Source of the DNA: Candidatus Woesearchaeota archaeon
GTDB lineage: Archaea; Nanobdellota; Nanobdellia; Pacearchaeales; GW2011-AR1
Length of the DNA: 27,958 nucleotides
Reading direction: 5' to 3'
Assembly (NCBI GenBank): GCA_964366295.1
Contig: CAYITH010000001.1
Location: 1 to 27,958 of the forward strand
How positions within the stretch are numbered: the stretch's first letter is position 1; the number at the start of each line of letters is the position of its first letter. The notes under the pieces are model-generated. The model saw nothing but the letters and a program-made list of their open reading frames with translations. It did no database searches and was not told the DNA's origin. Below are positions 9,529 through 27,958 of the stretch, one piece after another. A program made the position numbers and the translations under genes.

Positions 9529-10182
9529 TTAATAGAAATAATCAGCTAGACAGCATAATCTGCGCGGATGCCTTAACTTGCAAATTGCTTTCTGTTCAAT
9601 GTTGTAAATTGTTTGCTTTGTCGTGTGATATCTTTTAGCAATCTCTTCAAGAGTATGCTCCATATTATCTATTCCAAATCTCAACCTGATTATTTCTGCT
9701 TCTTGGCTTGGAATAGTTTTAAGTAATTTTCTCAATCTTTCCCGCATAGAATTGTAAATTGCCTGTTCATAAGGAGATGGTTGGGTAGACTGCGGTTCAG
9801 AATATTGGATTTCTTCGCGCTCTTTTTTAATACATTCCGCATATTCATCTCTAGCATTGCATTGTAGGGAAATAAATTTTGGCATTGGCGGAGTACATGA
9901 ATTATTCTTTCTTTCGCGCTCTATGTCTATTGTAGTCTTGCGAAGCTGGTTTGGAAATATCTTTGCGACTTTTTGACAAAGCGCTTTGCATATTATTGTT
10001 GCGGTTTTCTTTGGGGGAAATGCTCTGCATCTTTCATAAGAATGAAACGTTATCGAATTTATACCGGTTATTTCTTCAAGTTCTTTAATAGTATAACCAT
10101 TTTTTAAACGCGCTTCTCTAAGAGGATAGTTGAGGTAATTATCTTTTAAATCCCGCCGAAATTTGCATAATAAAGGTTCCAC
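9529..10182 (-). CDS. Fusion of an XRE-family HTH and a sigma70 region 3.2/4-like domain
   Basis: N-terminal LREARLKNGYTIKELEEITGINSITFHSYER (XRE HTH). C-terminal PSQEAEIIRLRFGI..EHTLEEIAKRYHTTKQTIYNIEQKAICKLRHP aligns by eye with RpoD region 4. Start is GTG and uncertain. Confidence 0.8.
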   Translation of the reverse strand: MEPLLCKFRRDLKDNYLNYPLREARLKNGYTIKELEEITGINSITFHSYERCRAFPPKKTATIICKALCQKVAKIFPNQLRKTTIDIERERKNNSCTPPMPKFISLQCNARDEYAECIKKEREEIQYSEPQSTQPSPYEQAIYNSMRERLRKLLKTIPSQEAEIIRLRFGIDNMEHTLEEIAKRYHTTKQTIYNIEQKAICKLRHPRRLCCLADYFY

Positions 10183-15854: not shown

Positions 15855-16052
15855 TCATTTGTTTTTTAGCCCTCTAATAGATCTTAACTTTTCTTCTCCG
15901 TTTTGCATTCGAGCTATCTTTTTCAATGCTCTTTGCGCCATCTCAAGCTGAGAGTTTATGAATGCGGAGTGCTGTTTTTTCCAAGTCTTGTCAGTCAGGA
16001 CAAATTTTGCCCAGCGTTCTATCTGTTCTGAATGAGAGGAGTCATGCGTCAT
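15855..16052 (-). CDS. Small helical hypothetical protein (65 aa), likely partner of the nucleotidyltransferase-like gene
   Basis: SHSEQIERWAKFV..W.K.H..FINSQ. Same strand as and directly downstream of the NTase gene once the inserted element is removed. Confidence 0.7.
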   Translation of the reverse strand: MTHDSSHSEQIERWAKFVLTDKTWKKQHSAFINSQLEMAQRALKKIARMQNGEEKLRSIRGLKNK

Positions 16053-16057
16053 TTTAT

Positions 16058-16198
16058 TTCAAAATTTGGGTTTAATACCTCGCAGCTTGCTGCGAATTTT
16101 GAAAGACTGAAAATGCTGGTTGTCGAAGACAAAAAAATTTGCGATGAATACCCTACAGCTTGCTGCGGAGTTAGCAAATTTTTAAGCATTTTCTTTAT
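16058..16198 (+). mobile_element. Non-autonomous palindromic element, copy 2
   Basis: 88/89 nt identical to copy 3 over 16052-16140. TTTAT at 16053-16057 and 16194-16198. Removal rejoins the NTase stop and the next ATG. Confidence 0.8.
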
Positions 16199-17320: not shown

Positions 17321-20300
17321 CTACTCTGCCCGCGGCTTTATTATCGCTGTGCAGCTCCGCGGCGTTGGCTCGCTGCCGCTTGTGTCACGGCATCGGATAT
17401 AGAAGGTTTTATCAGTTTTCCAATCAGTGAAATGTTCTGTGCTGTTCTGGAACGGCATGTCTATGCCGTCAGCGATGTTGAAGTTGCAGTTGCTGTTTGA
17501 GTAGGCGCAAGCGCTTTTTTCGTCTGTAACCACTTTTAGGCATCCTTCTACACCACATAGGGAGACGCCTTTTTCATTGTAAAAACGGGCAATACGGGGA
17601 GCTTGCTGGTCTACCTCAAGAGTAAAAGAAGCACTTTTTGTATCTGCGTTTCCACCCAGGTCAATGCACCTTATTGTAAGATTATAAGTTCCTTGGGCGA
17701 GATTTAAGGTTTGGGAGTGCTTGTTACTGCCTGTTGTAAAAAATGGCACGAAGTCGTTCTCGTTTCCTGTTTGGGAGAAGGAACAAGAGGCATCGCCGTT
17801 TGAGGCGCCGTTAGCGGTTTCAACTGAAATTTCAATAGGCGCAACTGAAGAAAATGCCCTTATTGTTCCGTTTGGCTTTATGTCAATTATATTTAGCGTC
17901 TGCGAACCGCGAAGTGTGAAAGGGAAACTTTCTGACATAATGTTTCTGTCTTTTTCTGCTGATAGGGGCTTGTCTTTGCATCTCACAAAAAAGTTATTGT
18001 CTTTTTTGTTTTCCAAGCCGAATAGAGTAGTTTTGCAGGTGAAGACAAGATTATTATTCACTTCAGAGCCGAAAGAACTGCATTGCATTGAATTTTCCAT
18101 GAGAGAAAGGTCTTTATCTTGCCTGCTCCACTTGCATTCAGCAGGCTCATTGATGTAGAATTCTGCTTCTGTCTCGTTCAGATTAAACTGGACAAACTGG
18201 TTGTTTATTATGCTTGTGGCTTCAACTTGAGGAGGCGTTGTGTCTGGCTCCTGCTCAACGCAGAAGCGTATAGCGAACTCGTCGTCATTCACATTTCCGT
18301 TTGCGTCTTTGCATCTTGAGTATAAGGTGAAAGTGCCATCGCTTGGAACTACAACTCCTTCTGCTTCCAGTGAATCTCTCGATGGCAGTTTCATTGTTTG
18401 TGTATGGTTGTATAAGAAAAGATTTGTTTCTCCGAAAAAGAATTTCATTTCGTCAAACTTTCGCGTGTGATTAAAGTCAATCTTGCATTGCGTTGGCTCA
18501 TTTGTTGAGATGCCGAATTGAAGCGGAGTAAATGCCTTTAAGCATCCATCTTCTCTCTCAGTATTAACAATTTTCATTCCCAAGCCAGGAGGCCTTATCT
18601 TAACATCTTTGTATTCATGGTCTTTTGTTAATACATCAGCGAATGGAATTATTGTTGGAGAGTCAACATCTCGTGGATTTACCCATGCGCAGGTATCATT
18701 GCCTGTTCCACTATTAAGAAGCTGGCACGCCTGCCCTAAGCTTCTGCATCTATATTCAGAACATGGTCTAAATTTATCATTATTGCACAGTTCGCAATCT
18801 GCTCCGCCAGTGCGCGGCTCAAACGGCTTGCACTGGAAGTTTATTGTCTGCGTTGTTTCTTTGCGATACATCGCATAAAACACAGCGAAGGCAACTCCTG
18901 CTCCGATGATGCCGGAGACGAGACCTGCATTTGAATTTAAAAAGCCAACTTTACTGCCAAGCCATCCCGCTTTTCCGCCGGTTGTTCCAATCAATCCATA
19001 AGCCGCTTTTCCTGCGAAAATCCCTGCGTAGGTAGCTGCTGAAAGAGCGTTTACTGTTGTTTCATCAACTCCAAACATTCTGCCTCCTGTCTGAATAATT
19101 CCGGCGACAACACCACCCCATACTAATCCTTGAGATGCCTGCCCCAAAAATATGCCCCATGGCTTTGCCCAAAATGTTCCTTTAGTTTCAAACAAACTTA
19201 AAAATTTCTCGCCTTGGAAACCTGCCGGCGCAACGGCTACTGCGAGTGCTGGAAAGCTCTTTAATGCGTTAGGATTTTCTGCATTAAGTTCGTAGAGTTC
19301 TTCGGAAGATAAACTACTACTTTTGTCTTTGTCGTATTTGGTGAATAAATCTAATGAAGAAGATTTGAATGAACTTTGTTCAAAATCGAATTGAGTATAT
19401 TCTGTACCATCGATAAAGGATTTAGAATCGATATCCTCTTGTGTTATACCTGCAAAATTATCCTTATTAAACCCACTAATATCTGAAACTTTCACCAACC
19501 CTGTTTTTCCACTAGTTTGAGAAACATATTGAAAATATTCGTCGTCTTTTCTAATTAAAATCATACCATTTGAATTTATAGAATCTATTTTGTACTCTTT
19601 ATCTGTGATAAATTTATTTGGAATATTTATACCTTTGTTGGTAGTATAACTATCTGGACTTAGCAAAACCTCATCCTCCACTGAGAATAATTTTTTAATA
19701 AACTCTATGAAAGAACCAGCTGTTTCTGCTGCGAAAATTACCCTGCCTGTTGTTTGCTGTGAGAAGGGCGAGGCAGATGCACCTGGAGAAAAGCCGATAG
19801 GGTTTTGGCGGATACTGGAAGCGACACTTACAGAGCCAGTGCAGTCGCTTATTTGAGAGCATAAACTTGTTAATGATTGGTTAAATTCCGGCTTAAGGCA
19901 TTGTTCATTTTCTTCAACATCGCCTTTTCCGCCTTCAAAAAGTTTTTTTTCGTATTTTACAATGCACTGCGCATTGCCTAAAGCGCAAACACCTTCAGAG
20001 TCTCCCGGAGACCAAAACTGAATGCCGGGCTTGACATCGGGCAGGCAAACTCCAGTTCTTCTTATTCCTGTTGTGGTAGTGTTTCCAAAAGCTGTGAGGA
20101 ATTTGGCTTTGTCTGTTTCTACCCATCTGCAATCGCGCTTGTCAGTGTTTTCGCAATCTGATTGTTCTTCTTGGCTTGCACAATCTTGCCAGCGATTTAC
20201 ACGGCAGGCGGCTTGTGAAAAATCGCCTTGTGTTGTTGGAATAGAATCTTCAATGCATTGCTCGTTGCGAAAATCAGCGCACGATTCTAAGACTTCCTCG

Positions 20301-21421
20301 CCAGCATAACAGACATGCTTCCATTGTCTGCTTCCTGTTGTATCTTGGCCTGCGCCAGTTGCGCTGTCGTAAATGCACCAGCTTTCTCCGTGCCTGTAAT
20401 CATTTCCATCTATTGTGTCTTTGCAGTTTAAATTCCTGCAGACATTATCGCCAAAAGTTGGAGCTACTTTGTCTTTTTTTCTGTCAAAAGCAGAGCAGAT
20501 ACTTCCAGCAATATAATCGCAGTTTCCGCAGTTTGCAGGATTTGTGCCGACAGGACAGGCAGAAGCTTTTGGAACAACTTTTTTCCAGTATAGCTTATCA
20601 TTAAATTTTGAGGCTTCATAGATGTTTGCTGCATTTCCGCAAGTATCCACAAAATAGACCTCATCTTTTCCTGGAACGCAGGTTGTTTTTGTTGATGGCC
20701 CGCAGTTAGTTGCTAACTCTTCTGCACTGCATAAGAAGTCTTCATAGAAAGTGGCGTTTGAAGTTATTTTTCCTTCGCTCGCAGTTGGGTTTTTGCAGTT
20801 TGCGCGTGTTGTGAAACTGCAGGTTTTAACAAAGTCCACTTCAAAAACACAGGCGCCCTCGTCTTCATTTTCTGCTATGGCAATGCACTCTGCCTCGCTT
20901 GAAACTGATTGGCGGAAGTCTGTCTGCAGGCCAAATGAAGCCGAGAGTTTCTTGCATCTTGTCAGCGAGACAAAAGAAGCCTGCTTTCCGACAACACAGC
21001 AGCCTTTTTGGCATTGAGGAATATCGCAGTCTTTGTTATCTGCCCAAACACCCCTTGAATCAGCGCAGACTTTCTCCGGAGTTTTTTCAGAGCAAGTGCC
21101 TTCAACGCTGTCATAACAGCACCCTTGCTTGCAGAATGATGTGGCTTCGCAACTCGCTGGCGCTTGGCGGAACGAGGGATTGCAATTTGCAGAGTTGGTA
21201 TTCTGGCAGAACGCCCCAGTGAGAGTTTTTTCACAACAGGTTGTTACTTGTGGAGTTGCAGGAGTGGCTTGTGCTTTAACTGCTGGCGCTGTGGAAGAGG
21301 CAATAATAAATGCAAAAGCAAAAGTTGAAATGAAAAATGTCAGTATTTCAAATAGGGAGATTGCCTGCTTTGCCCGCAATCTTTTTGGTTTGTTCAATAT
21401 CACGCTTTTATTTTTTTTCAT
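17321..21421 (-). CDS. Giant Cys-rich surface/membrane protein A (1366 aa)
   Basis: Basic N-terminus plus QA|ISLFE hydrophobic stretch. Cys-rich region (GESWCIYD, GSRQW, DTCGN), Gly/Ala-rich hydrophobic core, then C-terminal T[ND]E..[AST].C beta-rich repeats. ATG 21421 preferred over GTG 21427. Confidence 0.9.
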   Translation of the reverse strand: MKKNKSVILNKPKRLRAKQAISLFEILTFFISTFAFAFIIASSTAPAVKAQATPATPQVTTCCEKTLTGAFCQNTNSANCNPSFRQAPASCEATSFCKQGCCYDSVEGTCSEKTPEKVCADSRGVWADNKDCDIPQCQKGCCVVGKQASFVSLTRCKKLSASFGLQTDFRQSVSSEAECIAIAENEDEGACVFEVDFVKTCSFTTRANCKNPTASEGKITSNATFYEDFLCSAEELATNCGPSTKTTCVPGKDEVYFVDTCGNAANIYEASKFNDKLYWKKVVPKASACPVGTNPANCGNCDYIAGSICSAFDRKKDKVAPTFGDNVCRNLNCKDTIDGNDYRHGESWCIYDSATGAGQDTTGSRQWKHVCYAGEEVLESCADFRNEQCIEDSIPTTQGDFSQAACRVNRWQDCASQEEQSDCENTDKRDCRWVETDKAKFLTAFGNTTTTGIRRTGVCLPDVKPGIQFWSPGDSEGVCALGNAQCIVKYEKKLFEGGKGDVEENEQCLKPEFNQSLTSLCSQISDCTGSVSVASSIRQNPIGFSPGASASPFSQQTTGRVIFAAETAGSFIEFIKKLFSVEDEVLLSPDSYTTNKGINIPNKFITDKEYKIDSINSNGMILIRKDDEYFQYVSQTSGKTGLVKVSDISGFNKDNFAGITQEDIDSKSFIDGTEYTQFDFEQSSFKSSSLDLFTKYDKDKSSSLSSEELYELNAENPNALKSFPALAVAVAPAGFQGEKFLSLFETKGTFWAKPWGIFLGQASQGLVWGGVVAGIIQTGGRMFGVDETTVNALSAATYAGIFAGKAAYGLIGTTGGKAGWLGSKVGFLNSNAGLVSGIIGAGVAFAVFYAMYRKETTQTINFQCKPFEPRTGGADCELCNNDKFRPCSEYRCRSLGQACQLLNSGTGNDTCAWVNPRDVDSPTIIPFADVLTKDHEYKDVKIRPPGLGMKIVNTEREDGCLKAFTPLQFGISTNEPTQCKIDFNHTRKFDEMKFFFGETNLFLYNHTQTMKLPSRDSLEAEGVVVPSDGTFTLYSRCKDANGNVNDDEFAIRFCVEQEPDTTPPQVEATSIINNQFVQFNLNETEAEFYINEPAECKWSRQDKDLSLMENSMQCSSFGSEVNNNLVFTCKTTLFGLENKKDNNFFVRCKDKPLSAEKDRNIMSESFPFTLRGSQTLNIIDIKPNGTIRAFSSVAPIEISVETANGASNGDASCSFSQTGNENDFVPFFTTGSNKHSQTLNLAQGTYNLTIRCIDLGGNADTKSASFTLEVDQQAPRIARFYNEKGVSLCGVEGCLKVVTDEKSACAYSNSNCNFNIADGIDMPFQNSTEHFTDWKTDKTFYIRCRDTSGSEPTPRSCTAIIKPRAE

Positions 21422-21911
21422 TTGCACTCCTGAAATTAAAGGTTTCTGGACTTCCTTGTGATAGTGTGGAGATATACTGGTTATTTGGGGCTAATAGTAT
21501 TGGCATTAGTTGGGAGTTATTTAAGACAGGTGATAATGCTAAAACATACGGGTTATGGTAATTAGGGGTTTTATAAATGGGGATAGAGTTTATTGGTGGG
21601 AGTGGATTATCTAAAACAGATGATAATGCCCAAACATACTTTTCATCTAAACAAAGAAGTTTAAGAGGATTATTTTTGCAGAAACTGAAGGTTTCTGAAC
21701 TTCCATTTGAAGATAGGGATAGTGCCCAAACATAAGGATTATGTAATTTAATTCCACTAAATAATGGGTAGGAAGATAAATGGTTAATAGGAGATATATC
21801 GCCTAACATGACAGATGAGGCGGATAATGGAAAGGCAAATTGCGAGAAAGTAAAGTTATCTCTAAGCATCATGCGTTCTATTCTATTGTTTTCTGAAACT
21901 AAATTTATCAT
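21408..21911 (-). CDS. Hypothetical repeat-containing protein (167 aa)
   Basis: A stop-free frame fills the gap between the pilin-like gene (stop 21913) and giant gene A. Contains YV[WL]ALS three times and [SP]ETF twice. Confidence 0.5.
   Translation of the reverse strand: MINLVSENNRIERMMLRDNFTFSQFAFPLSASSVMLGDISPINHLSSYPLFSGIKLHNPYVWALSLSSNGSSETFSFCKNNPLKLLCLDEKYVWALSSVLDNPLPPINSIPIYKTPNYHNPYVLALSPVLNNSQLMPILLAPNNQYISTLSQGSPETFNFRSANEKK
21517..21733. repeat. Three degenerate direct repeats at 90/96-nt spacing
   Basis: GATAATGCTAAAACATA (21532), GATAATGCCCAAACATA (21622), GATAGTGCCCAAACATA (21718). Confidence 0.65.
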
Positions 21912-21912
21912 T

Positions 21913-22668
21913 TTATGAGTAGCCATAACCTGGCGGAAAGACACGGCTTCTTACGGCGAATAGCGTTTGTTCGCCAGTTGTGGTGTCTGTTAAAATAAAT
22001 ATTGTGCTTCCTTCTCCTTGGTCGAGCTTTTGCACTTTAATGTGGGGAAACTCTCTCAAATACCCTTCAGCGAAGGCGTCGCCATAACGGGCTTCAAGAT
22101 TTATTATATCTTGGGCAATGAAAAGCAAGTTATAAACCCCTGATGCGACTTTTACATTTAAACCAGAGACAGTTTGTTTTGCATCGCCTTGTGTTAGCGT
22201 GAATACGCTGTTAAGCTTTACTTCGATATTGTTGGGCGTTATTGACAAGGCGAATGGTTTTTCTTCTACTTGAGTGTTTCTTGAGGCGACTCTGGCTTGA
22301 GCGTGGCATTTTGAGACTGCCGGTTTTATAGCTTCGGCTAATGCGGTTTCGGCTTCTGTCTTTAGAACACCGACTTGGGCAGTGCAGGTTTTATAATTTT
22401 CAGAAGTGTAACAAAGATAAGGGAGATTGTTTCCCTGATATGGAAAAGTGTTTTCTATTTTTGGAGTGAAGCCTGAACTGCCAAGTTTTGCCACTGCATC
22501 TGCGACAGCTTTCTGGACGCAGGATTCAATTTCAACCTGCGGAGTTGTCCGCGATATAAGCGGCTTTATTTTTGGATATGAAAATGCAATTATGGCTATT
22601 GCTGCGAGAATAATAATTGCAATTATAACAAACAATGTCACCTGCCCGCGCTTACCTCTTAGATACAT
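21913..22668 (-). CDS. Pilin-like protein with class III (prepilin) signal peptide (251 aa)
   Basis: MYLRGKRG|QVTLFVIIAIIILAAIAIIAF fits the archaeal [KR][GA]|[QILF..][VILS..] plus hydrophobic-helix pattern. Paired Cys (PYLCY...CTAQ). Confidence 0.8.
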   Translation of the reverse strand: MYLRGKRGQVTLFVIIAIIILAAIAIIAFSYPKIKPLISRTTPQVEIESCVQKAVADAVAKLGSSGFTPKIENTFPYQGNNLPYLCYTSENYKTCTAQVGVLKTEAETALAEAIKPAVSKCHAQARVASRNTQVEEKPFALSITPNNIEVKLNSVFTLTQGDAKQTVSGLNVKVASGVYNLLFIAQDIINLEARYGDAFAEGYLREFPHIKVQKLDQGEGSTIFILTDTTTGEQTLFAVRSRVFPPGYGYS

Positions 22669-22725
22669 GTTTTTATGATGGAAATGAGATTTATAAATGT
22701 TGTTTGTCATCTTTACTTTTGAGTT

Positions 22726-23112
22726 TCACCACACCTCAAAATCTAAATTTATATTGGAAAAATCTTTTTTATCGCGAGTTATCAATATAAGCCCTTTGGC
22801 CTTCGCGATAGATGCTATCATGAGATCTGATTCTGCAAGAGGTATTTTTGCTCTTTTCAATCTGGAGAACTCTGCTCCAAAAAATCTGCAAGCATTTGGG
22901 GTAAAGTCTGCTATAGACACTGCGTCGAGTAGAGCATTGATAAGAGAGATGTCCTTGCTAGTATTTGCAGATAAAAATGCTCCTTTAAATAATTCGCATA
23001 AGGTAATTGAAGTTATAAACAAGTCCTTTTTGCCTATAGAGGATATTCTATTTTTTAATGCCGAATCCCCCCTCCAAATATCTATAATGATATTTGTATC
23101 AAGACAATACAT
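22726..23112 (-). CDS. VapC PIN-domain toxin
   Basis: CLDTNIIID, ITLCELFKG, DLMIASIA and LITRDKKDF. Confidence 0.9.
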   Translation of the reverse strand: MYCLDTNIIIDIWRGDSALKNRISSIGKKDLFITSITLCELFKGAFLSANTSKDISLINALLDAVSIADFTPNACRFFGAEFSRLKRAKIPLAESDLMIASIAKAKGLILITRDKKDFSNINLDFEVW

Positions 23113-23339
23113 TATAATTTCACCTCTCTAAGCTTAAATTTTTTTCTGTCTTCATATATTCTCTTTTCTATTTCTCCCCATTCTTTAGACCTATCTTTTA
23201 AGGCTCCAAAAAACTCCATAATACTCTTTTTTGGCTTGGCTTCTGTCAAGGATACTACTGTCTCGGAAAATGATTTTGCACCTTTCAACGCTGCCAGCCG
23301 GGCATATGCTTCATTAGATAAGGAGATAACTTTTACCAT
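23112..23339 (-). CDS. VapB antitoxin (75 aa)
   Basis: MVKVISLSNEAYARL..LKG.KSFSETV; TAATG overlap with vapC. ATG 23339 preferred over the longer track start. Confidence 0.85.
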   Translation of the reverse strand: MVKVISLSNEAYARLAALKGAKSFSETVVSLTEAKPKKSIMEFFGALKDRSKEWGEIEKRIYEDRKKFKLREVKL

Positions 23340-23373
23340 GCATACGCATATGCATACACCTATATAAATCTTT
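23340..23373 (-). promoter_or_regulatory. BRE/TATA promoter and GCATA-repeat operator candidate; probably a leaderless transcript
   Basis: Minus strand reads AAAGA-TTTATATA-N21-ATG. The spacer contains GCATA x3 and the palindrome GCATATGC. Confidence 0.55.
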
Positions 23374-23402
23374 TCTTTATTAAAAAACAATTGTTTTGTT
23401 TT

Positions 23403-23804
23403 TTAATTATTAAGCGATGCCAAAATCTTATCTACCATAGCCCGATTTTTAAAATGGGCGTCTGCACTTAACAATTGGCAGTTTAAAGCAAGTGACAGGG
23501 CTTCTACTGGCTTGTCAGCTTTATGTTTCACTTTAGTTTTTGAAATAAAATCATGATAGTATAATTTATCAAGCCATGTTATTGGCAGGCTGGCAATAAG
23601 AGTGTTTATTTCTGCATCTGAAAAATTAAGTTCCCTTTTTAGAACCCGAGTTATCTCTTCCTTAACAGTATCTGTTGAAAAAAGCATAATTTTATTTTCT
23701 AGAGCCGCTGAAACTATCTTGCCTGCTTTGCTATTTATATCATAAACGGCCATAAAAATAACATTAGTATCTATAACTATCTTAATAATTTCAGAACCAT
23801 TCAT
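23403..23804 (-). CDS. PIN-domain protein (putative toxin)
   Basis: KIVIDTNVIFMA, TVKEEI, D....ALSL....LLSADAHF. ATG 23804 overlaps the antitoxin stop by 14 nt. Confidence 0.82.
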   Translation of the reverse strand: MNGSEIIKIVIDTNVIFMAVYDINSKAGKIVSAALENKIMLFSTDTVKEEITRVLKRELNFSDAEINTLIASLPITWLDKLYYHDFISKTKVKHKADKPVEALSLALNCQLLSADAHFKNRAMVDKILASLNN

Positions 23805-24030
23805 CTGCAATTTCTTCCCTTATTTTTCTTGAGCTTTTTAATAAATCATAGAAGCCGAGATTTTTTTCTGACATTTTTCTCTTCAGCAAACCTCCTGCTT
23901 CAAGAAGTTTTTTTCTTTTATAATCCGATACTAAAATAGATATAAGCGCGGCTATATTTCTTTCTCTTTCCTGCAGTTTTATATTCACAAGCTCTCTATG
24001 TACCTCTTCGGATATCGCAATGGTTTTCAT
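23791..24030 (-). CDS. VapB-like antitoxin
   Basis: MKTIAISEEVHRELVNIK N-terminus, coupled to the PIN gene. Confidence 0.75.
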   Translation of the reverse strand: MKTIAISEEVHRELVNIKLQERERNIAALISILVSDYKRKKLLEAGGLLKRKMSEKNLGFYDLLKSSRKIREEIADEWF

Positions 24031-24064
24031 ATAAATTTATAATTTTACAGATTTATAAATCTTT
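24031..24064 (-). promoter_or_regulatory. BRE/TATA promoter; probably leaderless
   Basis: Minus strand reads AAAGA-TTTATAAA-N21-ATG, the same spacing as at 23339. Confidence 0.55.
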
Positions 24065-24081
24065 CTGTCCCTTAAACTTTT

Positions 24082-27000
24082 TTAATACACCTTCGCCTTG
24101 GCGATGCATGAACTTGGCTCGTTGTTCCAGATGTCACGGCATTTTATGTAGTATGTAAATTCAGAGTCTGCTGAAGTTGTATGTTCTATGGAAAGACCAG
24201 ACATTTTTGTGCCATTGGCAAAGTTGAAATTGCAGACACTTGTTGAAAAGGCGCATTCTGAATTTTCATCTGTTGAAATGTAAAGAGCGCTTCCACTTTG
24301 ATAGATTCTTGTTAGTTTTGGCGGAGTTGTGTCAAGCTCTATGGTGAATTGCGTTGAACGCTCAGCGGTGTTGCCTGCTGTGTCTGTGCATTTAACTGCG
24401 ACATTATGAGTTCCTCGGAAAAGGCTTAGACTGCCTTGCGTGTGAGTTGTTCCAGCTGTGGTGAAAAATGAGGCGAATAGCAAATTATTAAGTTTGTATT
24501 CGCAGAGCGCGTTGCCGTTGTCAATTCCGCCTGTTGTTGCTGCGCTGATTGTGACAGTAATTGGCTCTATGCCGTTGACTATTTTGCTTCCATCTGCGGG
24601 AGTGAGAGAGGTAATGTTAAGTATAGATTGAGTTCTTGTTAAGTCATATTTCTGGCTTTGCGTGTTTGCATTTCTCTTTGTCGCGTCTGTTTCCCACGGC
24701 ATATCAAGACAGCGGAAATAAACCGCGTTTTTGTCTCTTAACCCTGTTAAAACTCCCTCGCATCTGAAGCCGAAAATTGTTTGGTCTGCAAGAGATTGGT
24801 GGCATTGCATTGAGTTTTCCATTTCTCCGAAGGATTTGTCTGTTAGACTCCAACGGCAATCTGAAGGCTCGTTTGTGTGCATTTGAATGTTCATCTGTTC
24901 GGAATTAAAGGCAAGTTTTCCAACAGCTGGAGAGAAAGATTTTATTAATGGCGCTGTGCGGTCTGGCTCTGGATTGATGCATGCTTTTATTGAGTATTCG
25001 TTTGTGTTTACATTATTATTTGGGTCTTTGCAACGGACAAAGAATCTTAAATCCTGCACTTGCCTCTGGATTTCGCTTATTCCTGTTTCTGTTTCATGGG
25101 CGAGCGATTCAAGACTTGGAAGTGAGAGTTTAATAGTATGCTCTTTTCCCAAAATTCCTGTGTCAAAATCAATTTCCATTTCCTCAAAAGTGTCTTTGTG
25201 CTCTGTGTCTGCTAAGCATTGCGATGGCTCGTTTGTTTTTACGCCGAGCGTGAAGTCTGTGAATGGGTTAAGGCATTTTTCTATTTCATAGCCGTTTTCA
25301 ATAGTTTTTATCTGCACGCCTGAAGAAACTAATGGAGAAATTACAGGAGGAGATACATCATTAGGGCTAATGTCAACACACTCTTCTTTTCCTGTGCCTT
25401 CATTTATAAGGCGGCATGTTTGGCCAAGAGACTGGCAACGATAAGGCGAGCAAGTTTTGAAGCCTTTTATGAGAGAGCTGTCAGTGCATTTCGAACATTG
25501 CGAACCGCCTGGAGCGGGAAGCCATGCATTGCAAGTAAATGAGACAGTGCGTTCTTTTGTTTCACCGACACCGACAAGTTTCAGTATGCCTGCGAAGACT
25601 GCTACTAATGCTACAACTATTAAGGCTGCGGGGCCGAATGATATTGCTAAGGGTGCGTTGCTACCTACGGCTGCAAATCCTGCACTTACTCCACCTGCTG
25701 CTCCTACTACTCCACCAAAAACTAAAACAGCAGTAGATGCATCTCCTTGTAAGCCGAAGAGTTTTATGAAAATTGTTGCGGACAACATTCCTATAGCAAA
25801 AACTGCGGCTCCATTTGCATAAGCTCCGAGACTAGTGCCTAAAGTAGTGGGTAAAAAAGAGGGGGCAATTTCAGCAGTACCGGCTAATGTTCCTTTTAAA
25901 AGTGCAAAAACGGCTGAAAGACTTTTTCCAGCTATTGCGGCTGCGACAACAGAAGTACCTGCTAATCCTATCGCAGCCATGCTCATTGAATCAACGATAT
26001 CTGAATTAGAGAGGTCAGCTTGGCCTGTGTTTGGATTTGTGGGAAGGCCCATTGCTAAAAGAGTTTCATTTAAACTTTGGGCTTGAATAAATTTATTTTT
26101 TTCTGGAATAGCATCTTCTCTATAATCTGCAATTTCGTCTGCGCTCAAGTCTTGGAAACCCCAGCCAGCAATGCGGTAGTTTTTCTCAAACTTGCCGAGA
26201 ATGTTTGCTTTTCCACCGCAGTCGCCTAACGAGGTGCAAACTTTATTCATCTCTGTTGCGAGGCGAGCCATGCAGCCGCAATTTGCTTTGCATTTCCATT
26301 TTCCTAAAATGCTTTTTTGATAGGTCATCTTGCAGGTTGTTGTGGCTTGAGAGCATTGGGTGTCTGCAACACTTGCGAATTCTGGAGTTGAGGTGTCAAA
26401 GCCAGGCGGATACTTAGGAAGGCATAAAGTGAATTTGTAAGGCGGGATGTCATCGTCTGGGTGTCCGCTGTCAATGAGTGTATTGCGTATATAACAATCA
26501 GAGATTTTATCGCAATCATCTTTAAACTCATCTAATACTCCTGGAGAAGTCATATATCGGTTTTGAAACTGGGAATTGACATTAAAACATTCCTGCCAGC
26601 GATTAATACGGCATGAAGCTGATGAAACTTTTTTACCGGCGCCTACCTCTGCATCTGACTGGACGCAAATTTGTTGGCGGTAATCAGAACAACCTTCTGT
26701 AAGAACCTCGCCGTCAATACAGCTGCGGCGCCAGTGCCTGCTGCCTACTACATCTTCTCCATCGCCTAACTTGCTGTCATAAACGCACCATGATTCTCCA
26801 TTTTTTCTTTTTTTTCCGGCCTCATCAACACATTCTGTTGAAATGCATTGCGCTTCGCCAGAAGTTTCTGAACAACGACTGCTTAAAAAATGGTCACAAT
26901 TTCCGCAAGTTTTGCCAATGTTTAGCTGGCTAGGATTGCACGACTGTGCTGGTGACAAGACTCGACCGTTATTCCAACTTTGAAGAGTATTAGAACTGAA

Positions 27001-27783
27001 TATATTTTCCCGATTTCCGCAAGAATCAAACCAGTAAACTTTGTCTTCTCCTTCAACACATGCTTTTTTTACTTGTTTCTGGCAGTTGGTATTAAGCTCT
27101 GGAGCAGAGCATAAAAATCCGTCTTTGAATGATTGAGTATTACCTGTCTGCTGAAGGCATTCTTGCTGTGTTAAAAATTTGCACCCGAGCTCGTTGTTTG
27201 GGCCCGGAATTAAACAAGCGCCTTGCCTTCGTTCTTCTGACAGCAATACACAATCTACCTCATTTCGAATATTCTGGCGAAAATCTTTTTGCATTGCAGT
27301 ATTGCGTGCAAGGTTTTCACAGGCTTTTTCTGTAACAAATGCGGTGTTTTTTCCGAGAATACAACAACCTCTTGCGCAGGCGTCAATGTTGCACTCTGCG
27401 TTTGAACTCCAGATGCCTGCTGGCGATGGGCAAACTGCTTTTGGAGTGTTTGGAGTGCAAGTGCCTTCTGCGCTATTCTGGCAGCATCCAACTCTGCATT
27501 CTGCAAAAGAGCTTCTTGGCCCCGGAAAGCAGGGAGTTTTGCAATTATTGGCGCATTCGCTTGAGGGATATTCCTGACAAGAAACGCCTTGCTTGTTCTC
27601 ACTGCAGGTATAAGTTGGTTGGGCGGCTTGTGCTGAAACTATCGGCGTTGAATAAGAGGCAATAATAAATGCGAAGGCAAAATTTGAAATGAAAAATGTC
27701 AGTATTTCAAAGATGGAAATTGCTTTTCTTGATATAAGGGAAGTGTCCCTTATCAACCCTCTAATTGAGCTATTATTTTTCAT
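24082..27783 (-). CDS. Giant Cys-rich surface/membrane protein B (1233 aa), paralog of A
   Basis: RKA|ISIFEILTFF N-terminus. Shares GESWCVYD, GSRHW, DSCGN, C.PY.CQSLGQ.C.LIN.GTG and TNEP..C motifs with protein A, in the same order. Confidence 0.9.
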   Translation of the reverse strand: MKNNSSIRGLIRDTSLISRKAISIFEILTFFISNFAFAFIIASYSTPIVSAQAAQPTYTCSENKQGVSCQEYPSSECANNCKTPCFPGPRSSFAECRVGCCQNSAEGTCTPNTPKAVCPSPAGIWSSNAECNIDACARGCCILGKNTAFVTEKACENLARNTAMQKDFRQNIRNEVDCVLLSEERRQGACLIPGPNNELGCKFLTQQECLQQTGNTQSFKDGFLCSAPELNTNCQKQVKKACVEGEDKVYWFDSCGNRENIFSSNTLQSWNNGRVLSPAQSCNPSQLNIGKTCGNCDHFLSSRCSETSGEAQCISTECVDEAGKKRKNGESWCVYDSKLGDGEDVVGSRHWRRSCIDGEVLTEGCSDYRQQICVQSDAEVGAGKKVSSASCRINRWQECFNVNSQFQNRYMTSPGVLDEFKDDCDKISDCYIRNTLIDSGHPDDDIPPYKFTLCLPKYPPGFDTSTPEFASVADTQCSQATTTCKMTYQKSILGKWKCKANCGCMARLATEMNKVCTSLGDCGGKANILGKFEKNYRIAGWGFQDLSADEIADYREDAIPEKNKFIQAQSLNETLLAMGLPTNPNTGQADLSNSDIVDSMSMAAIGLAGTSVVAAAIAGKSLSAVFALLKGTLAGTAEIAPSFLPTTLGTSLGAYANGAAVFAIGMLSATIFIKLFGLQGDASTAVLVFGGVVGAAGGVSAGFAAVGSNAPLAISFGPAALIVVALVAVFAGILKLVGVGETKERTVSFTCNAWLPAPGGSQCSKCTDSSLIKGFKTCSPYRCQSLGQTCRLINEGTGKEECVDISPNDVSPPVISPLVSSGVQIKTIENGYEIEKCLNPFTDFTLGVKTNEPSQCLADTEHKDTFEEMEIDFDTGILGKEHTIKLSLPSLESLAHETETGISEIQRQVQDLRFFVRCKDPNNNVNTNEYSIKACINPEPDRTAPLIKSFSPAVGKLAFNSEQMNIQMHTNEPSDCRWSLTDKSFGEMENSMQCHQSLADQTIFGFRCEGVLTGLRDKNAVYFRCLDMPWETDATKRNANTQSQKYDLTRTQSILNITSLTPADGSKIVNGIEPITVTISAATTGGIDNGNALCEYKLNNLLFASFFTTAGTTHTQGSLSLFRGTHNVAVKCTDTAGNTAERSTQFTIELDTTPPKLTRIYQSGSALYISTDENSECAFSTSVCNFNFANGTKMSGLSIEHTTSADSEFTYYIKCRDIWNNEPSSCIAKAKVY

Positions 27784-27875
27784 GTTAGATAAACTGAAAA
27801 TCGATTTAATTGAAAATCTAAAGACAATAGATAATGTGAAGGCATACTTGATATTATATGGGGTAAAGTTTTTAT

Positions 27876-27958
27876 TTCAAAATTTGGGTTTAATACCCCG
27901 CAGCTTGCTGCGAATTTTGAAAGACTGAAAATGCTGGTTGTCGAAGACAAAAAAATTT
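27876..27958 (+). mobile_element. Non-autonomous palindromic element, copy 3 (cut by the window end)
   Basis: Near-identical to copy 2, with TTTAT at 27871-27875. Confidence 0.75.

Follow-up and report, generated by a model that had tools for sequence, protein, structure and literature searches.

A conserved envelope gene cluster joining giant cysteine-rich proteins with pilin-like proteins in a Pacearchaeales archaeon

Two giant cysteine-rich proteins (giants A and B) and a 251-amino-acid (aa) protein are encoded in a 27,958-nucleotide (nt) stretch of contig CAYITH010000001.1 (GenBank assembly GCA_964366295.1, Candidatus Woesearchaeota archaeon); the whole of this stretch is called the window below. 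All three proteins begin with sequences that resemble prepilin signals, namely R-K-A/I-S-I-F-E in giant B, K-Q-A/I-S-L-F-E in giant A and K-R-G/Q-V-T-L-F in the 251-aa protein (a slash marks the proposed cleavage point), exactly as read in a first-pass annotation that was made from the letters alone. That annotation took the giants to be prepilins, the very large minor subunits of a pilus-associated apparatus. The question raised by the locus is whether the giants are indeed giant pilins or reach the cell surface by another route. The evidence fits Sec delivery of the giants to the cell surface, where they would be embedded in the membrane, better than a role as giant minor pilins, and the small proteins are, by every available sequence criterion, class III (prepilin peptidase) substrates. 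What lies in the window is the leading part of an envelope gene cluster, conserved and so far undescribed, the core of which is a duplicated cassette of an approximately 255-aa pilin-like gene followed by an approximately 1,250-aa giant gene.

Results

The leaders of the giants were compared across 120 homologs. A [KR][GA] pair directly before the hydrophobic helix was found in 40 of the 120, the second residue being Ala in 33 and Gly in 7, and a FlaFind-type pattern fitted two giants. In the family of the 251-aa protein such a pair was present in 36 of 40 members. Glu or Gln was present at +3, +5 or +6 in no fixed register, so the Glu at +5 noted earlier holds for the N-termini of A and B as read and fails as a trait of the family. 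Giant A has Gln, not Lys or Arg, at -2, and giant B fits the class III pattern loosely. A conserved class III site in a fixed register is absent from the giant family, and the proposal that the giants are prepilins was not borne out by these counts.

A V-S-A motif after the helix was conserved far better, its three residues being kept in 103 (V), 109 (S) and 111 (A) of 118 members; the remaining residues at -3 were mostly Ala (7) or Ile (6). In most giants the motif sits 2 to 30 residues (typically 5 to 12) before the first invariant Cys, and in giant B it lies within a low-confidence linker of the AlphaFold2 model. An archaeal signal peptidase I is encoded on contig C36 of the genome (sigpep_I_arch, 59 bits, over the cut-off), and the leaders of other predicted secreted proteins of the genome end in V-F-A/Q, S-Y-A/Q and V-S-A/A. 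The giants have the n-region, the h-region and the small residues at -3 and -1 of a Sec signal peptide, with the matching peptidase in the genome. V-S-A is likely the processing site of the giants, a prediction made because the motif is conserved, because it ends the Sec signal peptides of split relatives (see below), because signal peptidase I is present and because other leaders of the genome are built alike. Processing at a downstream A-x-A site was the outcome that the first-pass annotation itself had set against its prepilin reading, and the V-S-A site is now the conserved feature of the leader.

The split relatives provide a separate view of the leader. In some relatives the ortholog of giant A is divided into a 495- to 562-aa gene for ectodomain 1 and a 789- to 802-aa gene for the core and C-terminal half, and these orthologs are 40 to 48% identical to A versus 32 to 35% to B. 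The separate ectodomain genes carry short canonical Sec signal peptides ending in N-F-V-S-A/, Y-S-S-A/ or L-T-S-A/ (for example, N-F-V-S-A/V-D-P-T-V-C-C and Y-S-S-A/Q-Q-N-T-V-C-C). In the genes for the core and C-terminal half, a helix is followed by F-V-S-A (locus L012) or I-V-S-G (locus L005); in the gene of locus L011 a V-S-A could not be recognised, and there is just an A-Q-A further on. The split loci (L011, 14604 to 19386; L012, 15498 to 20883; L005, 18243 to 22816) each consist of the ectodomain gene, one or two lipoprotein genes and the gene for the core and C-terminal half; the proteins encoded between the two halves have lipoboxes such as F-S-S-G-C and A-I-G-G-C. The split point corresponds to a stretch of a low-GC insert that is found in giant A only (window positions 19265 to 19720).

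The DNA of the two leaders was also compared within the genome. About 70 nt of the helix are near-identical between A (21272 to 21346) and B (27631 to 27708), with flanks that can barely be aligned and proteins that are about 34% identical, which looks like a gene-conversion tract. Two further genomes showed such likeness between their own A and B leaders, with identities of 0.79 and 0.68, and three others did not, the between-genome mean being 0.35; a constant co-evolution of the two leaders within each genome was discarded, as it held in three of six genomes only.

The 251-aa protein starts with M-Y-L-R-G-K-R-G/Q-V-T-L-F, followed by a transmembrane helix and a two-lobed alpha/beta domain. 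In an alignment of 40 family members, Q9 (+1) was invariant, K6, G8, V10 and F13 were kept at 90% or more, four Cys were invariant and the C-terminal end R...P-x-G-Y-G was conserved. The class III signal that had been noted on this protein is near-invariant in its family, as the counts above also indicate. AlphaFold2 modelled the protein at a predicted local distance difference test score (pLDDT) of 85, with an N-terminal helix, a flexible link and the two-lobed domain. A Foldseek search of the PDB with the model gave no match at an E value of 0.001 or better, and in a VIA-align comparison with 48,161 chains the best scores were to unrelated chains (Z 6.5), a pseudopilin and PilB being matched at Z 4.6 to 4.7, within the noise range. 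Among the curated pilin models run on the family, Pilin_N matched one member below its cut-off (E 0.099), and no class III signal model reached its threshold. The label pilin-like is taken from the signal only, because no curated pilin model reaches threshold. In the AlphaFold database (AFDB) the domain was found in uncharacterised archaeal proteins, some of them fused to cadherin or PKD domains, and in the ESM Atlas it was found in Nanobdellota clusters. On contig C97 of the same assembly (168 to 2021, locus L010), a 617-aa protein begins with K-R-G/Q-V-A-I-F and the N-terminal domain of the 251-aa family and continues into an unrelated C-terminal part of about 400 aa. Pfam gave no match for this protein, for the trailing pilin-like genes described below or for a lipoprotein gene, from this genome or from relatives.

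The genome was found to encode the machinery that a class III substrate needs. The absence of a prepilin peptidase had been named as grounds for giving up the pilin reading; an A24 prepilin peptidase is present on contig C4 (Peptidase_A24, 45 bits, over the cut-off). A complete and compact type IV filament locus on contig C39 (1663 to 6653) comprises an ATPase (510 aa; T2SSE, 105 bits), T2SSF platform genes of 431 and 276 aa and a pair of pilin-like genes with the N-termini K-K-G/L-S-H-V-E and K-K-G/I-L-R-I-A-E. About a dozen further proteins of the genome have [KR]G/hydrophobic N-termini. The peptidase and the filament locus are on contigs other than those of the giant cluster, and in the loci of the five relatives that were inspected the cluster has neither a filament ATPase gene nor a platform gene beside it; linkage to pilus ATPase genes was one of the points that the first-pass annotation had proposed to check. 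On C4 the A24 gene adjoins bacterial-type lipoprotein machinery (locus L001, 1018 to 3019), with Lgt at 153.6 bits, over its cut-off, and an LspA-like signal peptidase II at 58.5 bits, below its cut-off.

The two giants are paralogous, as had been proposed: BLASTP aligned their N-terminal parts at 33% identity (570 columns, E 3e-86) and their C-terminal parts at 35% (520 columns, E 9e-85), and their hydrophobic cores fail to align. A word-indexed search returned more than 244 full-length homologs of giant B at 32 to 39% identity, most of them aligned end to end and nearly all of 1,100 to 1,400 aa; the few with a name are almost without exception labelled hypothetical, and the homologs' names point to Pacearchaeota/Nanoarchaeota as the placement of the genome. 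When residues 1 to 845 of giant B were searched as a profile against 1.84 billion proteins, the matches comprised 2,463 representative clusters, 1,633 of them at an E value of 1e-30 or better. Of 301 genomes sampled from the phylum, 77 carry the family, usually with at least two matches per genome; it is present in 12 of 13 genomes of the window's own family and in 9 of 10 and 13 of 14 genomes of two other families. About 60 Cys are near-invariant across roughly 120 homologs, 39 Cys of giant B ectodomain 1 are kept in at least 85% of members, and conserved motifs include D-S-C-G-N, G-E-S-W-C, G-S-R-H and S-L-G-D-C-G. The order of parts described in the first-pass annotation (leader, Cys-rich ectodomain, hydrophobic Gly/Ala core, second Cys module and T[ND]E...C repeats) holds across these homologs. 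Its suggestion of an uncharacterised system also stands: the system is real and conserved in Pacearchaeota-type DPANN archaea, and the literature searched, which included one paper on archaeal type IV filament systems, contains no account of the giant family.

Residues 1 to 845 of giant B were modelled with AlphaFold2 from a 118-sequence alignment (pLDDT 82.7; as far as approximately residue 570, most block means in ectodomain 1 exceed 90). The model consists of a helix (12 to 45), a disordered stretch (46 to 53), a mostly beta ectodomain to about residue 580, hydrophobic core helices (594 to 737) at low pLDDT except for 718 to 737, and a well-modelled second Cys module, which in the giants has seven near-invariant Cys including a C-x-x-C. 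The core is poorly conserved in giant B, with only G606, G677, G690, G738 and G740 kept, and hydropathy gave four hydrophobic segments between the two Cys-rich parts. Because the number of core helices in giant B is even, both Cys-rich parts would be extracellular, and the conserved cysteines and the putative Ig-like domains fit this placement. The topology of giant A is less clear because its core has a single strongly hydrophobic segment.

The fold of ectodomain 1 is without a solved relative. Foldseek gave no PDB match for it at an E value of 0.001 or better, comparison of the giant with 48,161 chains by VIA-align gave Z values of at most 7.1, to transmembrane helices only and within the stated noise range, and profile searches of PDB sequences with the giant gave nothing significant. 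Matches to the ectodomain in AFDB and the ESM Atlas were only to unnamed Nanobdellota hypothetical proteins. A search of viral structures (BFVD) with the ectodomain was empty, which left a likeness of the giant to viral fusion proteins unsupported, and a match of the core to the type III translocator AopB (E 0.22) was discarded as compositional. Pfam and NCBIfam gave only sub-threshold matches on both giants. Those to Ig-like families in the C-terminal repeats recurred: of 77 members, 39 matched Big_13, 18 matched DUF4625 and 16 matched Y_Y_Y; Big_13 was matched at E 1.4e-4 in giant A and 3.3e-4 in giant B, the best match scoring 23.8 bits versus a gathering score of 27. Matches to EF-hand_6, Vault, MukB and XopAW, obtained with the same libraries on the giants, the 251-aa protein and a repeat-bearing open reading frame (ORF), were discarded as noise.

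A complex of the 251-aa protein (residues 36 to 251) with giant B ectodomain 1 (52 to 580) was predicted with a median score of 0.33 versus 0.00 for the best control, a result graded as weak support. In the calibration, 58 of 80 solved complexes and 2 of 110 mismatched pairs passed the docking mark, and scores of 0.60 or less were those of 7 of the 80 solved complexes plus both mismatches that passed. The three docking runs agree. The interface includes residues 87, 95, 98, 100, 196, 245 and 247 of the small protein and 69, 101, 109, 118, 123, 391, 394, 461 and 462 of the giant, all of them invariant or nearly so. Together, the docking result and the conserved pairing of the genes modestly raise the odds of a direct contact between the pilin-like protein and the giant, for which the support from modelling is weak.

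Gene order was compared with the loci of five relatives (among them L005, L011, L012 and L013), and the neighbourhood was found to be conserved, which was one of the checks proposed beforehand. The common order is a small winged helix-turn-helix (wHTH) gene, a pilin-like gene (254 to 263 aa), a giant, a second pilin-like gene (251 to 266 aa) and a second giant, whole or split. The wHTH gene is missing in L013, and PCNA lies just upstream in four of the five loci. In L005 the second giant directly follows the first, and a 284-aa second pilin-like gene comes after both. The giant is closely followed by the next pilin-like gene or the second giant in four of the five loci, and genes overlap or abut in L011 and L012; the overlaps suggest coupling. 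In L013 a 192-aa gene on the opposite strand intervenes after the giant. Four more pilin-like genes trail the cluster in three of the five loci, with N-termini such as K-R-G/F-E-F-S-F and K-K-G/Q-E-E-I-V-G-F.

The source genome assembly (725 kb, 102 contigs, about 80% complete) carries the missing parts of this order on other contigs. PCNA, the wHTH gene and the first pilin-like gene (261 aa, R-K-A/Q) are located at a contig end of C59, and C65 and C80 hold the four pilin-like genes of the trailing block. At the break upstream of giant B, which is the window end, lies an 88-nt repeat (27871 to 27958; also at 16052 to 16140). The repeat is found on more than 25 other contigs, with copies 95 to 99% identical on C3, C10, C14, C16, C22, C23, C27, C80, C86 and others, and one copy is located inside the trailing pilin-like block on C80. 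The repeat probably caused the fragmentation of the assembly, including the break between the window and C59, because it is often found at contig ends.

Within the window, giant B, two toxin-antitoxin modules, the 251-aa pilin-like gene, a repeat-bearing spacer and giant A follow one another in a co-oriented set on the minus strand (Table 1), and every gene listed for this set in the first-pass annotation is present. No toxin-antitoxin module was found at the corresponding position in any of the five relatives, and the window copy has gained the two modules and the spacer relative to the other genomes. The spacer had been listed as a repeat ORF (21408 to 21944). The repeats are real; as a gene it does not hold, having no family in Pfam or NCBIfam and overlapping both neighbours, and it is more likely a non-coding spacer than a gene. 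It is single-copy in the genome, and no Rfam family was found anywhere in the window, the spacer included.

Table 1. Features of the giant locus in the window, with positions counted from the first nucleotide.
Feature	Positions	Strand	Basis
Giant B gene, B-type member, 1233 aa	24082..27783	-	ORF and translation; homologs without names
Giant B leader, residues 1-51: basic n-region, hydrophobic helix I-S-I-F-E-I-L...F-A-F-A-F-I-I, V49-S50-A51 site	27631..27783	-	Alignment and AlphaFold2
Giant B ectodomain 1, residues 52-580, disulfide-rich, mostly beta	26044..27630	-	AlphaFold2; no solved relative
Giant B hydrophobic Gly/Ala-rich core, residues 594-742, about 4 hydrophobic helices	25558..26004	-	Hydropathy and AlphaFold2
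Giant B second Cys module and four beta-rich repeats of putative Ig-like type	24085..25551	-	Alignment; sub-threshold Pfam matches
Two toxin-antitoxin modules, between giant B and pilin-like gene	22726..24030	-	Pfam
PIN toxin and VapB-type antitoxin	22726..23112 (toxin); 23112..23390 (antitoxin)	-	Pfam PIN, E 6e-14; VAPB_antitox, E 4e-13
Second PIN toxin and small upstream ORF	23403..23810 (toxin); 23791..24030 (small ORF)	-	PIN_3, E 6e-7; small ORF without family match
Pilin-like gene, 251 aa, second pilin-like type, from internal Met	21913..22668 (ORF to 22710)	-	Class III signal, family alignment
Spacer, 485 bp, degenerate direct repeats about 90 nt apart	21428..21912	none	Repeat search
Giant A gene, A-type member, 1366 aa from ATG (1368 aa from upstream GTG)	17321..21421 (to 21427 from GTG)	-	ORF and translation
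Giant A leader, residues 1-50, ending V48-K49-A50	21272..21421	-	Translation

The other genes of the window are archaeal housekeeping genes, including aRF1 with an intein, a topoisomerase, a class I tRNA synthetase and an HhH-GPD glycosylase. The intein in aRF1 (1 to 1056) was matched by Intein_splicing (E 4e-16). A 217-aa protein (9529 to 10182) combines an XRE-type helix-turn-helix with Sigma70 region 4 (E 5e-11) in this archaeal genome.

Discussion

The reading that we favour, with confidence a little above even, is that the giants are Sec-delivered, membrane-embedded surface proteins, that the small proteins are class III substrates and that the two may form a joint contact or adhesion assembly. 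The small proteins would be cut after K-R-G by the A24 peptidase of the genome and then be anchored by, or assembled through, their N-terminal helix, possibly via the unlinked filament machine on C39. The giants would enter by Sec on the leader formed by the helix and V-S-A and would most likely be cut by signal peptidase I after V-S-A. In the mature giant, ectodomain 1 on the one hand and the second Cys module with four putative Ig-like domains on the other would lie outside the cell, held by an even number of Gly/Ala-rich hydrophobic helices. The pilin-like protein may dock on ectodomain 1, each protein contributing its most conserved surface; the predicted complex gives this step weak support. 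Such an assembly could serve as a surface contact or adhesion device of host-dependent cells.

Several observations weigh against this account. For a signal that is to be discarded, the leader helix is too well conserved: about 80% of members have Glu or Gln close to its beginning, its end resembles F-A-F-S-Y and 86% keep I27. V-S-A lies 36 to 50 residues after the helix in about half of the giants, which is far for signal peptidase I. When a giant is split, the helix stays with the gene for the core and C-terminal half, and it may therefore be retained or act after cleavage. The R-K-A/I of giant B matches the loose class III pattern of the genome's pilin-like proteins. The core of giant A has one strongly hydrophobic segment, which makes the proposed topology less secure, and the docking score is weak by its own calibration. 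None of the results presented here bears on adhesion or host contact.

Some of these points are accommodated by an uncleaved leader helix, acting as a signal anchor in a polytopic giant (the first transmembrane helix plus two to four core helices). V-S-A would then be the structural start of the ectodomain, and the first helix would pack on the Gly/Ala core, perhaps pairing between paralogs. The conservation of the helix, its passage with the gene for the core and C-terminal half, the concerted evolution of the A and B helices in three of six genomes and the Ser kept at -2 (109 of 118 members), a residue that is dispensable for signal peptidase I, are in line with this. However, x-S-A also ends the short signal peptides of stand-alone ectodomains, where it has no anchor role, the -3/-1 rule is satisfied in nearly all members and the motif falls in a disordered linker of the model. 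An uncleaved anchor is rated as unlikely.

The giants could instead be class III substrates cut at R-K-A/I-S-I-F-E, that is, giant minor pilins whose helix, with Glu at +5, sits in the tip or base of a filament made of the six small pilin-like proteins. Giant B has Lys at -2 and Ala at -1 before the helix, like the pilin-like R-K-A/Q protein on C59, two pilin-like proteins on C39 have Glu at +5 or +6, and within three of six genomes the A and B helices are near-identical, as the pilin helices of one filament are. There are six pilin-like genes in the cluster, and the peptidase, ATPase and platform are in the genome. On the other side stand the minority and mostly Ala-type site, the drifting Glu/Gln register, the two FlaFind-type fits and the Gln at -2 of giant A, next to a V-S-A motif that is far better conserved. 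An internal hydrophobic core would be hard for a filament subunit to extract from the membrane, and no ATPase or platform gene accompanies the cluster in the loci of the five relatives. We consider giant minor pilins quite unlikely, and the Sec-delivered reading accounts better for the leaders.

It is very unlikely that the cluster is a housekeeping envelope scaffold, such as an S-layer anchor or organiser, with class III signals serving as membrane anchors only, as in the Sulfolobus bindosome. The cluster does hold a fixed core-genome position beside replication genes (PCNA and primase), a gene with a faint S_layer_C match is located about 3 kb downstream in L013, the giant family is near-universal in several families and the filament machinery is unlinked; against this, about three quarters of the genomes sampled from the phylum gave no match, although their cells are similarly built, and the putative Ig-like repeats and large variable ectodomains are typical of adhesins; none of these points is decisive. 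The giants as S-layer proteins themselves were set aside because L013 has that separate S_layer_C gene. Highly improbable, finally, is a DPANN-specific host-contact machine in which a short pseudopilus of the six small proteins presents or drives the ectodomains while the core and leader helix form a channel or insert into the partner membrane; if true, it would give an uptake route for lipids and metabolites that reduced genomes cannot make.

Pacearchaeota and their relatives are abundant, uncultured and thought to depend on other cells, and we know of no molecule that mediates their contacts. The cluster is among the largest conserved unannotated surface-gene blocks in these genomes, and it joins type IV pilin-type signals with a very large family that lacks a solved fold relative. 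A leader that is most likely of Sec type for the giants and of class III type for the small proteins can guide the choice of peptidase assays and constructs, and the ectodomain, being modelled with confidence, offers a defined object for structure determination and binding studies.

Comparison with known systems

Three known systems resemble the cluster in part. The Epd pili of Methanococcus maripaludis (processed by EppA; archaeal type IV filament "system 1") are alike in having Gln at +1 after [KR]-G, several clustered pilin-like paralogs and an A24 peptidase in the genome. Unlike in the Epd pili, no Pilin_N or class III model is over threshold here and no pilin fold is matched, the ATPase and platform genes are unlinked and the pilin-like genes alternate with those of two giant Cys-rich membrane proteins. 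PilB of Streptococcus sanguinis is reportedly a modular type IV pilin with large functional modules grafted on a pilin N-terminus (PMC8179133), and it is a precedent for the first-pass idea about the giants; the giants differ from it in having no conserved class III site and in their internal hydrophobic core, and the structural match to PilB was obtained with the small 251-aa protein only, at noise level (Z 4.6). Bacterial operons that pair minor pilins with a large adhesin, namely the FimU-PilVWX-PilY1 set of Pseudomonas and GspH-I-J-K of type II secretion, share no sequence or fold kinship with the cluster, in which the giants have a membrane-embedded core and a Sec-type leader and the cells are single-membrane archaea. 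The comparison with them is one of gene organisation only: four to six pilin-like genes occur together with non-pilin proteins of more than 1,000 aa, and a contact between the pilin-like and the large proteins, here a predicted one, is part of the likeness.

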